Source of the DNA: Gammaproteobacteria bacterium
GTDB lineage: Bacteria; Pseudomonadota; Gammaproteobacteria; GCA-001735895
Assembly: GCA_050298595.1 (NCBI GenBank)
Contig: JBNKUM010000008.1
Span: 139,017 to 203,016, forward strand
Reading direction: 5' to 3'
Length of the DNA stretch: 64,000 bases
Shown here: piece by piece, positions 2,739-38,107 of the stretch
Layout of the letters: each line of letters starts with the position of its first letter
Numbering within the stretch: position 1 is the stretch's first letter
Position numbers and translations under genes: made by a program
Notes under the pieces: model-generated
What the model saw: only the letters and a program-made list of their open reading frames with translations
Told to the model about the DNA's origin: nothing
Database searches by the model: none

Positions 2739-3572
2739 TCAGTATTCTATAGCTGTCTGCTTAAGTGTCTGCACTATAGCCAATGCCTGTCGGGTTTCTG
2801 TGACATCGTGCACACGGATAATATGCGCGCCAAGCATGGCACTGATCACTGCCGCAGAGACACTGCCATACACCCTTTCATCAACAGGTTTATCTAGCAC
2901 CAGTCCGACCATGCTTTTACGCGACAAGCCCACCAGCAAGGGGTAACCCATCTCGACAAACTCTGGCAACGCTTTCAGTAATTGATAATTTTGATCCAGA
3001 GTTTTACCAAATCCAAACCCGGGATCAATGATTAAGTTTTGTTTTTTTATACCTGCTGCCTGAGCGGCAAATAATCGATCGTGCAGAAAACGCTTAACCT
3101 CTTTGAGCACCGACTCATACTCAGGGTTTTGCTGCATATTATCGGGACTGCCCTGCATATGCATCAAACAAACAGGTAATCCAGAGTCGGCCGCAGCCTG
3201 CATAGCACCCTCGCGACGTAAGGCCCACACATCATTGATCATATTTACCCCAGCAGCACTAGCTACACGCATTACCTCGGCTTTGCTGGTATCAATTGAA
3301 ATAGGTATGTCTGAAAATGCACGAATACTTTCAATAAGCGGGATAGTGCGACTGATTTCCTCATCCACCGAAACATCTGCTGCGCCAGGACGCGTTGACT
3401 CACCGCCTATATCGAGAATATCCGCCCCCTCGTCAATCAGCCTGCGCGCCTGCTCTAGCGCTTTATCATGGCTAAGGAAATGCCCGCCATCGGAAAACGA
3501 ATCCGGTGTTGTATTGATAATACCCATGACTGACAGGGCTTTTAAATCGAGGATAGATGATTTGCTGAACAT
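2739..3572 (-). CDS. folP: dihydropteroate synthase
   Basis: 277-aa ORF with the [14 protein letters not shown] and [10 protein letters not shown] pterin-binding motifs. It lies downstream of ftsH as in E. coli. Confidence 0.9.
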
Positions 3573-3658
3573 TGAATTAAGGCTGAGATTGAATTGATTA
3601 CGCCTAATTTTAAACCACTAAAAAAGATGGCGTAAGTAGTTATTTGCAGTGCAATTGA

Positions 3659-3683
3659 AGAAGGCCGGTCACCCGGCCTTCAT
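3659..3683 (-). terminator. weak hairpin (GAAGGCCGG-TCAC-CCGGCCTTC) just 3' of ftsH; possible partial terminator or attenuator before folP
   Basis: A perfect 9-bp GC-rich stem 8 nt after the ftsH stop. The following U-tract on the minus strand is poor. Confidence 0.3.
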
Positions 3684-3690
3684 TTAAGTC

Positions 3691-5628
3691 TTAATGCAAA
3701 CTTGCTGGATCAGATAAATCCGCTTTTTTCTTATCCTTTGATTCAGCCTTGGTAGCACCCGCACCACCACTATCGGAAGGATCATCCGAGCCATTGCTGG
3801 TCCAGTCCTCTGGAGGACCTGGCACATGGCCTTGCATAATGGCATCGATCTGACTGACATCAATAGTTTCATACTTCATCAAAGCATCCGCCATCAAATG
3901 AAGCTTATCTTCATTTTCTGTCAGGATTTTCAATGAACGCTCGTAGTTTCGATCAATAATGCCGCGAATCTCAGAATCTATCGCCTGAGCAGTTTCATCC
4001 GAAACCATTTTATTTTTGGTGACAGACTTACCCAGAAAGACCTCTCCCTCTTCCTCAATATAGGTCAATGGACCCATACGATCTGAAAGCCCCCATTTGG
4101 TCACCATATTCCGCGCCAGGCTGGTAGCACGTTCAATATCATTGGAAGCACCTGTGGTGACAGCATCTGCACCAAAGATTATTTGCTCGGCAATACGCCC
4201 ACCGAACAGACTGGAAATATTACTTTCCAGATGTTGTCGACTAGCACTATAACGGTCATCCTCTGGCAGGAACATAGTCACACCCAGAGCACGTCCACGC
4301 GGAATGATTGACACCTTGTATACAGGATCGTGATCCGGCACCAGACGTCCGACAATAGCATGCCCAGCTTCATGATAAGCGGTCAGCTTTTTCTCATCTT
4401 CTTTCATGATCATAGACTTGCGCTCAGCACCCATCATGATCTTATCCTTAGCACGTTCAAATTCGGCCATGCTAACAAGTTTTTTATTGCCACGTGCAGC
4501 AAACAGTGCGGCTTCATTCACCAGATTGGCTAGATCAGCACCAGAAAATCCAGGGGTACCACGCGCAATCACCATCGCATCAACATTGTCTGCAGCAGGA
4601 ACTTTACGCATATGAACCTTCAGGATATGAGCACGACCACGAACATCCGGTAATGGCACCACGACCTGACGATCAAATCGACCTGGACGAAGTAGCGCAG
4701 GATCTAGCACATCAGGACGGTTAGTTGCGGCAATTACAATAACACCTTCGTTGCCTTCAAAACCATCCATCTCAACCAGTAACTGGTTCAGGGTTTGCTC
4801 GCGCTCATCGTGACCACCACCCAGGCCAGCGCCACGATGACGACCAACCGCATCAATTTCATCGATGAAGATAATGCAGGGACTATGCTTCTTGGCCTGT
4901 TCAAACATATCACGAACACGTGATGCACCGACACCAACAAACATTTCCACAAAATCGGAACCGGAGATAGTAAAGAAAGGTACCTTGGCCTCACCTGCAA
5001 TCGCTTTTGCTAACAGAGTTTTACCAGTACCGGGTGAGCCCACCATTAATACGCCGCGAGGAATCTTGCCACCCAGCTTCTGGAATTTGGCTGGGTCGCT
5101 TAGGAATTCAACCAGTTCAGCCACATCTTCTTTGGCTTCATCAACACCGGCCACATCATTAAAGGTTACATTAACCTGATCTTCACCCAATAAACGGGCT
5201 TTGGATTTGCCAAAAGACATAGCACCACGACCGCCACCACCGCCCTGCATCTGGCGCATGAAGAAAATCCATAAACCGATCAGAATAATAAATGGGAACC
5301 AGCTAATAAACATATGAGCCAGCAAGGAAGGCTGTTCGGGTGGCTTGGACATAATCTGTACGCCAGCCTTCTCAAGATCACCTATGAGTGGAGAGTTATT
5401 AGTTTCTGGACTATAGGTCGAAAAAGTAGCCCCACTGATCAATTTTCCGTTGATCTGCTGCCCTTCGATCAACACCTCACTAATCTGCCCGGCACGAACC
5501 TGAGACAGAAATTCGGAATAGATCATATTTCTACCGGATGTACTGCGGTCACCAAAATTCTGAAACACTGATAACAGAACTACCGCGATCACAACCCATA
5601 GGATTAAATTCTTTGCTACGTCATTCAC
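3691..5628 (-). CDS. ftsH: ATP-dependent zinc metalloprotease FtsH
   Basis: 645-aa ORF with two N-terminal TM segments, Walker A GPPGTGKT, an SRH region and the HEAGH zinc site. Confidence 0.95.
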
Positions 5629-34372: not shown

Positions 34373-35410
34373 ATGACCTCATTAAAAATCATTCAACCCG
34401 ACGACTGGCATTTACATCTGCGGGACAATTTATCATTGCAATCAGTAGTTAATGACTCTGCCAGACAGTTTGCCAGAGCGATTATCATGCCCAATCTGGT
34501 CCCACCTGTAACCACCTGTGAGCAGGCCTGTGCCTATCGCGAACGCATAATGGCTGCAGTAGATAAAGACCTCAGTTTTGAACCTCTGATGACACTTTAT
34601 CTAACCGATAATACGAGTACTGAAGAAATCCGCCTGGCCAGCGAGTCACCCTTTATTCATGCTGCCAAGCTGTATCCTGCTGGAGCCACCACAAACTCGG
34701 ATGCAGGGGTTACGGGCATCAAGCGAATTTACTCGGTACTGGAAGCCATGCAACAATATGACCTGCCCTTACTCGTGCATGGTGAAGCAACAGCTAACGA
34801 TATTGACATCTTTGACCGGGAAAAAGTCTTTATTGATCAAACCCTGAGTCAACTGCGTCAGGATTTCCCACAGCTTCGTATCGTGTTTGAACACATCACA
34901 ACATCTGATGCTGTGAGTTTTGTGCTAGAGCATAAATCTGCTTACACTGCAGGAACGATCACCGCTCACCATCTTTTGATCAATCGTAATGCCCTTTTTA
35001 AAGGTGGTATGAATCCTCACCATTATTGTCTCCCAGTTGTTAAGCGCGAAACTCACCGACTTGCACTACTAAAAGCAGCCACCCAACATGCTGATCGATT
35101 TTTTTGCGGTACCGACAGCGCGCCCCATGCACAGGGAGCAAAAGAATCAGCCTGTGGTTGTGCCGGCATTTATACCGCACATGCGGCCATAGAGTTATAT
35201 GCCGAAGCATTCGAACAAACCAACGATTTCTCACAGTTTGAAAAATTCATGAGCCTTTCAGGACCTGCTTTTTATCACTTGCCTGTAAATACTCGACAAA
35301 TAACCCTTAATAAACAGGACTGGACCATAGCCAATTCAATCCCTTTTGCGCATCAAACCTTAATCCCCTTTCGCGCCGGACAAACCCTCAGCTGGAAACT
35401 GGAAGCTTAA
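34373..35410 (+). CDS. pyrC: dihydroorotase (class II, E. coli type)
   Basis: 345-aa ORF with DDWHLHLRD metal-binding histidines at the N-terminus. Collinear with E. coli PyrC. Confidence 0.9.
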   Translation: MTSLKIIQPDDWHLHLRDNLSLQSVVNDSARQFARAIIMPNLVPPVTTCEQACAYRERIMAAVDKDLSFEPLMTLYLTDNTSTEEIRLASESPFIHAAKLYPAGATTNSDAGVTGIKRIYSVLEAMQQYDLPLLVHGEATANDIDIFDREKVFIDQTLSQLRQDFPQLRIVFEHITTSDAVSFVLEHKSAYTAGTITAHHLLINRNALFKGGMNPHHYCLPVVKRETHRLALLKAATQHADRFFCGTDSAPHAQGAKESACGCAGIYTAHAAIELYAEAFEQTNDFSQFEKFMSLSGPAFYHLPVNTRQITLNKQDWTIANSIPFAHQTLIPFRAGQTLSWKLEA

Positions 35411-36138: not shown

Positions 36139-37074
36139 ATGTTACAAAAAGAAGATATTTCCATCATAGTCGTCGACGACCTTCAGTTTAGTTGTGAAGT
36201 CGTCAAATCAGGCCTCAAAAAATCGGGTTACAAAGACATACGTACCGCCAACTCTGCTAATAAAGCGATGCTTTTATTAAACGAAAGGCGTGCCGATGTC
36301 ATACTGGCTGATTTCTGGATGCCTGAAATGAACGGACTTGAATTAACCGATCTGATAAGGCGCTGGGATGGAAAAAATAATCGTTATACCGGTATTATTT
36401 TGCTAACAGCGGAGGATACAACCTCCAGCATAGTGGTTGCTTTCGATCACGGTGTAGATGACTTCATTTCAAAATCAGCCAATCAGTACGAGCTAGCCGC
36501 TCGTGTCTACGGTGCCGGCAGGATTTCCATCACGCATAATAATATCTATAAATTAAACAGCGACCTGACCACACAATATCTAAACCACAACCACCTGAGG
36601 CTGATTGATATGGACACAGGGCTATCAAACTATAAGCAGTTTGAAAGAACCCTGGAGTCAATGATTATTCATTGCGAAACTCGAGGTGGCGGAATCGCTA
36701 TTGGATTGATTCGGGTGGATGTTAATGAAGATGATGAGGCTGAAACCAGGCTTAGACCAGGAACCTTGAGAACTATTTCAAATGCGCTACAGCTGGTACT
36801 CAGGCCAATGGATGAAATAGCGCGTATTGACAGCAATACATTTGCAATTGCTCTGATATACGCTGACCAGAATATGTTCAACACTGATATGTTTAAGCGC
36901 AGTACCTCAAGCATACTCAAAAACACACATATGCTTACCGATCAGGGCAAAAAACTAAAGCTATCTATAGCCTGCTGGAATACAGACGAGTTTGATCCAT
37001 TACCCAGCGTACCCTATGTGCTTGAACAAGCAGAAGCCCTGTTTGCCCCACTGAAACTGGAAAACGAAAGTTAA
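36139..37074 (+). CDS. response regulator with receiver domain fused to a degenerate GGDEF-like domain
   Basis: The N-terminal REC has a DD acid pocket, the phospho-acceptor D in ILADFWMP and K in the FISK context. In the C-terminal domain the GG[DE]EF position reads DSNTF (EIARIDSNTFAIAL), so it is probably not a cyclase. Confidence 0.7.
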   Translation: MLQKEDISIIVVDDLQFSCEVVKSGLKKSGYKDIRTANSANKAMLLLNERRADVILADFWMPEMNGLELTDLIRRWDGKNNRYTGIILLTAEDTTSSIVVAFDHGVDDFISKSANQYELAARVYGAGRISITHNNIYKLNSDLTTQYLNHNHLRLIDMDTGLSNYKQFERTLESMIIHCETRGGGIAIGLIRVDVNEDDEAETRLRPGTLRTISNALQLVLRPMDEIARIDSNTFAIALIYADQNMFNTDMFKRSTSSILKNTHMLTDQGKKLKLSIACWNTDEFDPLPSVPYVLEQAEALFAPLKLENES

Positions 37075-37140
37075 AAAAGCCCCGCATGTGGCAATGCTGT
37101 TCACTTAAGCATTTGAGTTTACATAAGGCTTAATAGAAAA

Positions 37141-37170
37141 TCCGGTGATGGAAACATCATCGGATTTTTT
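37141..37170 (+). promoter_or_regulatory. stem-loop immediately 5' of the transposase-remnant start codon; candidate translational fold-back control typical of IS4-family elements
   Basis: TCCGGTGATG-GAAA-CATCATCGGA followed by TTTTTTATG. The stem overlaps the putative ribosome-binding region. Confidence 0.35.
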
Positions 37171-37731
37171 ATGGCCGTTCAACAAGACCTTCTCAACCTT
37201 AGTGACCTCTTTAACTTCTCAGATATCAGTTCATTGACTCAAAACATCCCCATCAAGTGGGTTGAGTCTGCGCTGCGCTTGAGCGCCAGTACAACGATTA
37301 GGAGGCGTCGGTTGCCATCGGAACAAGTACTTTGGCTTATGTTGGGGATGGCGATGTTTCGAAATGAGCCGGTACATGAAGTTGCCAGGCGTTTAAATAT
37401 ATGCGCGCAAGACCTGGCCTCAGACAGTCTTTTAGCTCAAAGCGGTGTCACTAATGCTCGTAAACGACTCGGCTCAGACCCCGTAGAAGGGTTATTTCGA
37501 CAAACAGGTACGCACTGGGGGAACGAACGTTATCCTGAAGATGAATGGAACGGGTTGAAAGTGATGGCCGCTTCTAACCCGATATCTGGAATGGGTCGAC
37601 GACTGTCGGAGCTGAGGTCTGGTATTGGAAGTTTGTTTTTGGAAAGACGTCCGAGGCCAGCAAAGCCTCGGACGGTAAAGATATCAAAGACCCGATATCC
37701 GGTGGATCGTTATGCTGCTCCGCTTAAGTGA
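37171..37731 (+). CDS. IS4-family transposase remnant: N-terminal DNA-binding region fused in frame to the C-terminal tail, with the DDE catalytic core missing
   Basis: RRRRLPSEQVLWLMLGMAMFRNEPVHEVARRLNI and ARKRLGSDPVEGLFRQTGTHWGN match the IS4 (E. coli) transposase N-terminus. The tail ERRPRPAKPRTVKISKTRYPVDRYAAPLK matches the IS4 C-terminus (TRRERAFPRVVKERPWKYPTAPKK). IS4 is about 440 aa; this ORF is 186 aa. Confidence 0.7.
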   Translation: MAVQQDLLNLSDLFNFSDISSLTQNIPIKWVESALRLSASTTIRRRRLPSEQVLWLMLGMAMFRNEPVHEVARRLNICAQDLASDSLLAQSGVTNARKRLGSDPVEGLFRQTGTHWGNERYPEDEWNGLKVMAASNPISGMGRRLSELRSGIGSLFLERRPRPAKPRTVKISKTRYPVDRYAAPLK

Positions 37732-37780
37732 ACAGCATTGCCCGCATGCGGGGCTTTTTAGAATTGGTAAGGAATTAAGC

Positions 37781-38107
37781 CTAGTCAACCTTTTTGGCCA
37801 CAGCTTCCTTGATTATTTTCTCTAATTCGCCTGACTCTTTCATTTCAAGTGTGATATCGCATCCACCGATCAACTCACCATCAACATACACCTGCGGAAA
37901 GGTAGGCCAGTCTGCATAACGCGGTAAATTCTGGAAAATTTCAGGGTCAGTCAGGACATTCACATAAGCGAATTCAACGCCCAGTGAAACCAGTGCTTCG
38001 GCAGTACGACTGGAAAATCCACACTGTGGTAACTGCGGAGTGCCTTTCATATAAATCACTACCGGATTTGATTCAACCTGTTCTTTAATGCGTTCTAAAA
38101 CGTCCAT
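37781..38107 (-). CDS. grxD: monothiol glutaredoxin (Grx4/GrxD, CGFS type)
   Basis: 108-aa ORF with the CGFS active site and the WPTFPQ and GGCDI motifs. Confidence 0.9.
   Translation of the reverse strand: MDVLERIKEQVESNPVVIYMKGTPQLPQCGFSSRTAEALVSLGVEFAYVNVLTDPEIFQNLPRYADWPTFPQVYVDGELIGGCDITLEMKESGELEKIIKEAVAKKVD

Follow-up and report, generated by a model that had tools for sequence, protein, structure and literature searches.

A 649-bp remnant of an insertion sequence (IS) was identified in a 64,000-nucleotide stretch of a Gammaproteobacteria bacterium genome (assembly GCA_050298595.1, contig JBNKUM010000008.1, positions 139,017 to 203,016 of the forward strand). This whole stretch is called the window below, and positions are given in its numbering. 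The remnant occupies 37092–37740 on the + strand and lies between two convergent genes, a REC-GGDEF regulator gene (36139–37074, + strand) and the monothiol-type glutaredoxin gene grxD (37781–38107, - strand). It carries an open reading frame (ORF) of 186 amino acids (37171–37731, + strand), which makes up 86% of its 649 bp and ends with a TGA inside the right terminal repeat. A hairpin lies just before the ORF (37136–37169, + strand) and a deletion junction within it (37561–37568, + strand). At each end there follow, from the inside outwards, a terminal inverted repeat, one copy of a target-site duplication and a piece of native flanking sequence. The base composition is uninformative (47.6% G+C in the remnant, 43–45% in the flanks), and no Rfam family matches within 36800–38000 at E ≤ 1.

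The ORF was assigned to the IS4 family by profile searches. Residues 18–110 match the Pfam family PF13006 (Nterm_IS4) with an E value of 4.6e-26 and 91.3 bits against a cutoff of 25, and no match to DDE_Tnp_1 (PF01609) was found in the Pfam search. The match to the NCBIfam model transpos_IS4_1 covers only profile positions 1–110 of 332 (59.9 bits, below the cutoff of 115). The homologue in Hahella sp. CCB-MM4 matches positions 1–330 of the same model with 281.5 bits. The Hahella element (NZ_MRYI01000002.1; L011, 2420–3859) is 1440 bp long, encodes an intact 449-aa transposase, and is the closest relative found, sharing 82% nucleotide identity with the remnant. Residues 1–133 of the window ORF align without gaps to Hahella residues 1–133 (115/133 identical, 86%), and residues 134–186 correspond to Hahella 397–449 (48/53 identical, 91%). 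An earlier note made from the sequence of this stretch had proposed an internally deleted IS4-family element with both ends retained, in which the transposase termini are fused in frame and the DDE core is missing. The profile homology and the colinearity with full-length relatives bear this out; the N-terminal part was estimated closely (about 135 aa, found to be 133), and the C-terminal part, put at about 30 aa, has 53 aa.

Members of the IS4 family have the spacing D(60-110)D(100-150)E and the motif Y(2)R(3)E(6)K in their transposases (PMC2266710). The segment missing from the window ORF, Hahella 134–396, contains D135, D212 and E322 together with Y315, R318, E322 and K329 of the YREK motif (315–329). 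The remnant therefore has neither the catalytic triad nor the YREK motif, both of which are present in the Hahella relative with the spacing D(76)D(109)E. By this comparison, the window copy is a defective descendant of the IS4 subgroup that lacks the catalytic core, and no functional member of it.

The boundaries of the element were set by homology. The blastn alignments to full-length elements start at 37091/37092 and stop at 37740, and the termini are identical to those of three related elements, from an Acinetobacter seifertii plasmid (L001), Hahella (L011) and Marinibactrum halimedae (L013). Perfect inverted repeats of 19 bp lie at the two ends, at 37092–37110 (+ strand; CAATGCTGTTCACTTAAGC) and 37722–37740 (- strand), and fit the signature -AATR--------WTW. 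Elements of the IS4 subgroup are 1400–1650 bp long, with this terminal signature, direct repeats of 10–13 bp and markedly conserved target arms (PMC2266710, Table 1 for the signature). The 649-bp length of the remnant falls far below this range, and the shortfall is explained by a microhomology deletion of about 789 bp.

This deletion left a clear junction. The blastn alignment falls into two blocks that have 8 nt in common (37561–37568, element positions 470–477), with the sequence GTGATGGC, which encodes Val-Met-Ala. In Hahella, the first breakpoint reads GLKVMA/VDGAL (AAAGTCATGGCGGTA) and the second reads QLIVMA/ASNPIS (ATTGTGATGGCGGCT); the window reads GLKVMAASNPIS (AAAGTGATGGCCGCT) at the junction. 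Such an overlap is what a deletion between short direct repeats leaves behind; relative to the full-length elements, about 780–789 bp, or 263 codons, were lost. Because both GTGATGGC repeats encode Val-Met-Ala in frame, the fused ORF is in frame as well, and selection need not be invoked. The junction is the same in every carrier contig aligned.

Outside the 19-bp repeats, the two ends carry a target-site duplication of 11 bp. The left copy is CCCGCATGTGG (37081–37091) and the right copy is CCCGCATGCGG (37741–37751). They differ by one mismatch, a later C>T change in the left copy, and have the consensus CCCGCATGYGG. Beyond them lie the native flanks AAAAAAGC on the left (37073–37080) and GGCTTTTT on the right (37752–37759), so that the window reads AAAAAAGC-CCCGCATGTGG-CAATG at the left junction and CATTG-CCCGCATGCGG-GGCTTTTT at the right. 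In two other carriers (L009 and L010), the left copy is a perfect CCCGCATGCGG and the right copy is mutated, indicating that the ancestral 11-bp duplication was perfect. The empty site predicted from the duplication is AAAAAGCCCCGCATGCGGGGCTTTTT. A related genome (L006) with the same gene order, pyrC-rnt-REC/GGDEF-grxD-asnB, and a REC-GGDEF orthologue of 89% identity reads TTAATAAAAAGCCCCGCATGCGGGGCTTTTAGTATTGG at this place, without insertion and as predicted. The intact empty site in that genome is AAAAAGCCCCGCATGCGGGGCTTTT, and its hairpin is GCCCCGCATGCGGGGC. The right flank in the window is colinear with it. The duplication of 11–13 bp that the earlier note had suggested looking for by comparison with an empty site is thus present.

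These data also redefine the terminal repeats. The earlier note had described 36-bp repeats delimiting an element of 686 bp (37074–37759). Such repeats are literally present: 37074–37110 and 37722–37759 match in 36 of 38 columns, and repeat finding resolves them into two adjoining inverted pairs, 37090–37110/37722–37742 (21 nt, 100%) and 37074–37091/37742–37759 (18 nt, 94%). Only 19 bp on each side belong to the IS, however, and the rest is the 11-bp duplication and the native terminator flank seen in the empty site, so the boundaries of that note are too wide. The target was palindromic, and for this reason the duplicated loop and inner stem, together with the outer stem and the A- and T-tracts, mimic an extension of the 19-bp repeats. 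The possibility that the repeats are a dispersed REP-like or terminator motif was ruled out in the 64-kb window: the inner 21-mer occurs only twice, once at each end of the remnant (0 expected), and the hairpin 16-mer occurs once, at the right junction.

Taken together, we consider it highly probable that the element is a decaying, internally deleted remnant of an IS4-subgroup insertion sequence that was inserted into the terminator common to the two convergent genes. A full-length IS of the IS4 subgroup, about 1.43–1.44 kb in size, would have transposed into a palindromic bidirectional terminator between the REC-GGDEF gene and grxD, and insertion by staggered cuts would have made the 11-bp duplication typical of the subgroup. 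Afterwards, a deletion between the two 8-nt GTGATGGC repeats would have taken out 263 codons and with them the three catalytic residues, although the deletion may instead predate the insertion. The remnant would then have been inherited vertically at a single locus while decaying neutrally. It appears to correspond to no nameable full-length copy, the nearest full-length relative sharing 82% nucleotide identity.

Several points weigh against this interpretation. Of the 8 carrier contigs with listed gene calls, 7 have an open ORF, and the 19-bp repeats are perfect at either end; residual function or mobilisation in trans is thus formally possible. A full-length helper elsewhere in the host genome is also possible, as the search covered 64 kb of the host. 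The decay statistics given below come from 15 variable codons in a recombination-mosaic locus, and the conclusions on termination are drawn from predicted folds. A search for protein homologues with the 186-aa ORF returned 120 matches, all of ≤313 aa, with no transposase of about 450 aa among them. This absence carries little weight, since Hahella encodes one whose N-terminal part is 86% identical.

The first alternative is that the element is a non-autonomous derivative resembling MITEs (miniature inverted-repeat transposable elements), still mobilised in trans by a full-length IS4-type copy, as the earlier note had proposed. The 19-bp termini have remained perfect on both sides and do not differ from those of an intact element, and mobile short derivatives do exist in the lineage. 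An identical 206-bp MITE, for example, was found in three terminator hairpins (L054 3128–3333, L073 9445–9650 and L127 8371–8576), with duplications of 11–13 bp. The distribution of the remnant is different. The identical 186-aa protein is encoded on 7 contigs, all with the same locus and neighbours, and L010 carries the remnant there as well, with the same junction. When proteins are clustered at 90% identity, the cluster of the ORF has a single member sequence. The window contains neither a further terminus besides the two of the remnant nor the second copy for which the earlier note had suggested a search. A full-length parent or helper was sought as well, and searches of 185,579 species genomes and 120+ metagenome stretches yielded no relative above 82% nucleotide identity: the protein scan of the species genomes gave 4 loci with a best amino acid identity of 78%, and the metagenome scan with an 18-nt terminus gave 120+ stretches, none closer to the remnant than the Hahella copy. 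The two copies of the duplication are diverging, indicating that the remnant is old and has not moved recently. Of the features by which MITEs are recognised, the remnant has inverted repeats and a duplication, but it is neither small nor non-coding, and no multiple dispersed copies were found in the window and the collections searched. The lineage does have genuine MITEs, but the window copy does not belong to them; present-day mobilisation in trans is accordingly very improbable.

A second alternative is that the 186-aa fusion is a domesticated DNA-binding protein, as the earlier note had also suggested, or a transposition inhibitor or an immunity factor that binds IS4-type ends. Truncated transposases can inhibit transposition, e.g., the Inh protein of Tn5. 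The fusion retains the whole N-terminal IS4 domain and a conserved C-terminal part of 53 aa that is 91% identical to that in Hahella, and the frame is open in most carriers. The alleles nevertheless show signs of decay. The L010 allele (3533–4093, corresponding to 37171–37731 of the window) differs by 16 single-nucleotide polymorphisms (SNPs) within 254 bp and has premature stop codons at L48 and Q80. When the changes were polarised on Hahella, those derived in this tract numbered 7 (non-synonymous) and 3 (synonymous) for the window allele, and 4 and 1, respectively, for the L010 allele. One change in the window allele, W107G, removes the tryptophan of the PVEWLF motif, which is conserved in L001, L011 and L012. 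An intact ORF under purifying selection across lineages was not found in this small sample. The in-frame state is explained by the deletion between in-frame repeats, as described above. In addition, the start codon stands at the foot of a hairpin of about -30 kcal/mol that covers the ribosome-binding region, a sigma-70 promoter scan of 36900–37950 found no promoter-like site, and no target IS is known in the genome, of which 64 kb is readable. We regard domestication as very unlikely. The favoured interpretation is instead that the remnant is a neutrally decaying orphan, vertically inherited at one locus and unable to move by itself.

The SNP cluster in L010 was also examined as a trace of IS-specific gene conversion. 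This was rejected, because similar SNP clusters between strains occur across the whole locus. The pyrC-asnB locus is a mosaic of such between-strain clusters, e.g., 14 SNPs in 35263–35351 of the window, which suggests frequent homologous recombination or strain-mixed assemblies.

The empty site provides a view of the intergenic region before the insertion. With A- and T-tracts on its two sides and a fold of -16.5 kcal/mol (z -4.2), it is predicted to be a bidirectional intrinsic terminator that has a hairpin and a tract in both directions. The flanks kept in the window are parts of it: AAAAAAGC consists of the A-tract and the outer stem and overlaps the stop codon of the REC-GGDEF gene, and GGCTTTTT consists of the outer stem and the T-tract. 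In another relative with a REC-GGDEF orthologue of 90% identity (L005, 3449–3513), the orthologous intergenic site has a different terminator hairpin, AAAAAAGCCCCATTCAGGGGCATTTTT, indicating that a bidirectional terminator at this position is conserved and its sequence turns over.

According to the folding predictions, the insertion split this terminator and moved the U-tract of each gene beyond the other end of the element. Towards the REC-GGDEF gene, the junction now folds with -4.1 kcal/mol, and towards grxD with -7.5 kcal/mol, with z about 0 and no U-tract. The outward-facing structures at the ends of the remnant, which the earlier note had taken for hairpin plus T-tract terminators, are truncated half-hairpins of -6.4 and -7.6 kcal/mol, also with z about 0 and no better than shuffled sequence. 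The left repeat of that note does begin at the stop codon of the REC-GGDEF gene, as it had stated, with the A-tract starting within the TAA at 37072–37074. As the stop codon precedes the IS end by 17 nt, the IS contributes no codons to the gene, and the C-terminus of the REC-GGDEF protein aligns to the end, in the same column, with those of four orthologues from empty-site genomes; the difference in length (311 vs. 315 aa) is due to an internal indel. The third alternative, that both flanking genes owe their terminators, and perhaps their final codons, to the terminal repeats, draws on the hairpin remnants and T-runs at both ends and on the A-tract overlapping the stop codon, yet it is barely tenable, as these sequences are native and present in the empty site, each T-tract now lies beyond the IS from the gene that it served, the junction folds have lost the stability of the intact site, and the REC-GGDEF gene ends where its orthologues do; if the IS provides any terminator, it is the internal 5' hairpin and not the repeats. 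Judged from the predicted folds, REC-GGDEF transcripts are now probably stopped by this hairpin and its U-tract, about 60–100 nt past the stop codon, and grxD is probably without its terminator and reads antisense into the remnant. The GGDEF domain of the regulator itself scores 23.5 bits, just under the Pfam cutoff of 23.8, over profile positions 3–132 of 161, and may be degenerate and non-catalytic.

The 5' hairpin has arms at 37136–37150 and 37155–37169 and a GAAA loop, and repeat finding places it at 37133–37172, before and reaching the ATG at 37171. The stem-loop over the translation start that had been noticed earlier is therefore real. On the + strand, it folds with -30.4 kcal/mol and a z of -7.9; the values for the - strand are -18.3 kcal/mol and -4.7. 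The 3' arm, which covers the upstream ribosome-binding region, ends in UUUUUU just before the AUG, so that a hairpin with a U6 tract, as in an intrinsic terminator, is present on the + strand. A simple terminator scan missed this structure, the T-run having been counted inside the stem. Nine related elements keep the sequence AATCCG...CGGATTTTTT-ATG at the base of the hairpin and vary in the inner stem and loop. RNAalifold analysis of these nine elements gave 15 pairs, 7 of them with compensatory double changes. This covariation indicates that the hairpin is a conserved functional part of the IS lineage. By analogy with the left end of IS200, its most likely role would be to block outside read-through transcription or translation, and such a role makes sense because the element lands just downstream of genes.

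The target preference of the lineage was surveyed using metagenome loci fetched by the 18-nt terminus together with the loci found earlier, and insertions with duplications of 11–13 bp and ≤1 mismatch were considered. All 13 independent insertions of this kind lie in GC hairpins, as judged from the reconstructed empty sites. The median minimum free energy of these sites is -17.8 kcal/mol and the median z is -4.75, with z < -2 in 10 and an A- and/or T-tract in 11 of the 13. The lineage characteristically targets terminator hairpins. The full-length Hahella copy, for example, lies in a terminator hairpin with a 12-bp duplication, CCCTATTAAGGG. The copy on A. seifertii plasmid pAS74-1 (L001, 1502–2923), retrieved by a plasmid search, is 1422 bp long and full-length but frameshifted, with about 72% identity. 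It has the ends CAATGCTGTTCACTTAAG... and ...CTTAAGTGAACAGCATTG and a perfect 12-bp direct repeat, AGCTCTATACTG. These two copies and a copy on an Escherichia coli plasmid all have CAATG...CATTG termini and perfect duplications of 11–12 bp.

Some further members of the lineage were noted. The A. seifertii copy adjoins a mer operon and is without annotation in the record, its transposase being split into ORFs of 250 and 235 aa. An independent internally deleted copy of 1159 bp lies in a terminator hairpin of M. halimedae (L013, 370–1528), where the right repeat is separated from the duplication by two additional, unexplained bases (TG). The 206-bp MITE carries an internal hairpin with a T-tract, AAAAAATGAGGGAGGCATGATGCCTCCCTCTTTCT, as if replacing the terminator that it split. 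A second class of elements of 100–235 bp has the 18-nt terminus CAATGCTGTTCACTTAAG and non-hairpin targets (L051, L118, L103, L126, L034, L026 and about 20 more loci). For 25 sites of this class, where the 10-bp duplication has YTAR at its centre, the median z is -0.08. Since the ends are shared, the same ends are used with a different target rule.

A more speculative interpretation, which we regard as possible but doubtful, combines these features. The lineage and its MITEs would act as 'terminator-swap' elements that target terminator hairpins and bring their own conserved, covarying and bidirectional terminator-like hairpin, which would replace the destroyed host terminator while insulating the transposase from read-through. 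The remnant would then have persisted because its 5' hairpin now terminates the REC-GGDEF gene and, on the other strand, grxD.

Compared with known systems, the remnant is an ordinary defective insertion sequence of the IS4 subgroup. It shares with this subgroup (type element E. coli IS4; De Palmenaer et al., 2008, PMC2266710) the N-terminal domain, the CAATG........TTA ends and the 11-bp duplication, and its full-length relatives are 1422–1440 bp long with a single ORF, D(76)D(109)E and YREK. It differs in its length of 649 bp and in the loss of the whole catalytic core. The E. coli IncFIB plasmid copy (L135), annotated as IS4 family, has the same architecture, being inserted in a hairpin and carrying a hairpin and T-tract before the ATG. 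The Hahella IS has 18-nt termini identical to those of the remnant and a nearly identical 5' hairpin, but is intact and located at an unrelated locus in an unrelated host. Like bacterial MITEs and other IS derivatives with internal deletions, the remnant keeps its repeats and duplication and has no transposase activity. MITEs of 133–211 bp in metagenomes have the same termini and terminator targeting as its lineage, whereas the remnant has a single known locus, 649 bp, a 186-aa ORF and no amplification seen.

Insertion into short GC-rich palindromes, whereby the duplication and flanks mimic longer inverted repeats, is shared with other ISs. IS231A, for example, has the target consensus GGG-N5-CCC. 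IS1397/ISKpn1, IS621 and ISRm22 insert into REP palindromes (PMC1525189). The lineage described here differs in using unique intrinsic terminators with A- and T-tracts rather than a repeated REP family. The 5' hairpin resembles the left end of IS200, where a bidirectional terminator and a start-sequestering stem-loop protect from impinging transcription and repress translation (PMC4513863). Both elements have a strong hairpin and U-tract at the transposase-proximal end, reaching the translation start. IS200, however, encodes an HUH transposase and uses two separate structures, while in the remnant, by analogy, one hairpin may do both jobs. The target preference of the IS4 subgroup is already noted in the literature, and in the papers available to our literature search, terminators were nowhere named explicitly as targets of IS4. 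Mayaux and colleagues reportedly described in 1984 that the targets of IS4 have the consensus AAA-N20-TTT.

The locus itself is of little importance, being a dead insertion-sequence remnant; the annotation that it calls for is that of a pseudogene or IS fragment with the boundaries 37092–37740, and neither that of a novel mobile element nor that of a regulator. The more general lesson is methodological: once a palindromic terminator has received an IS, the duplicated target and its surroundings look like long terminal repeats and like terminators facing outwards, so that the element is drawn too wide and mistaken functional accounts are encouraged. The terminator targeting and the covarying 5' hairpin of the lineage may aid the annotation of ISs and the understanding of how such elements limit harm to their hosts.

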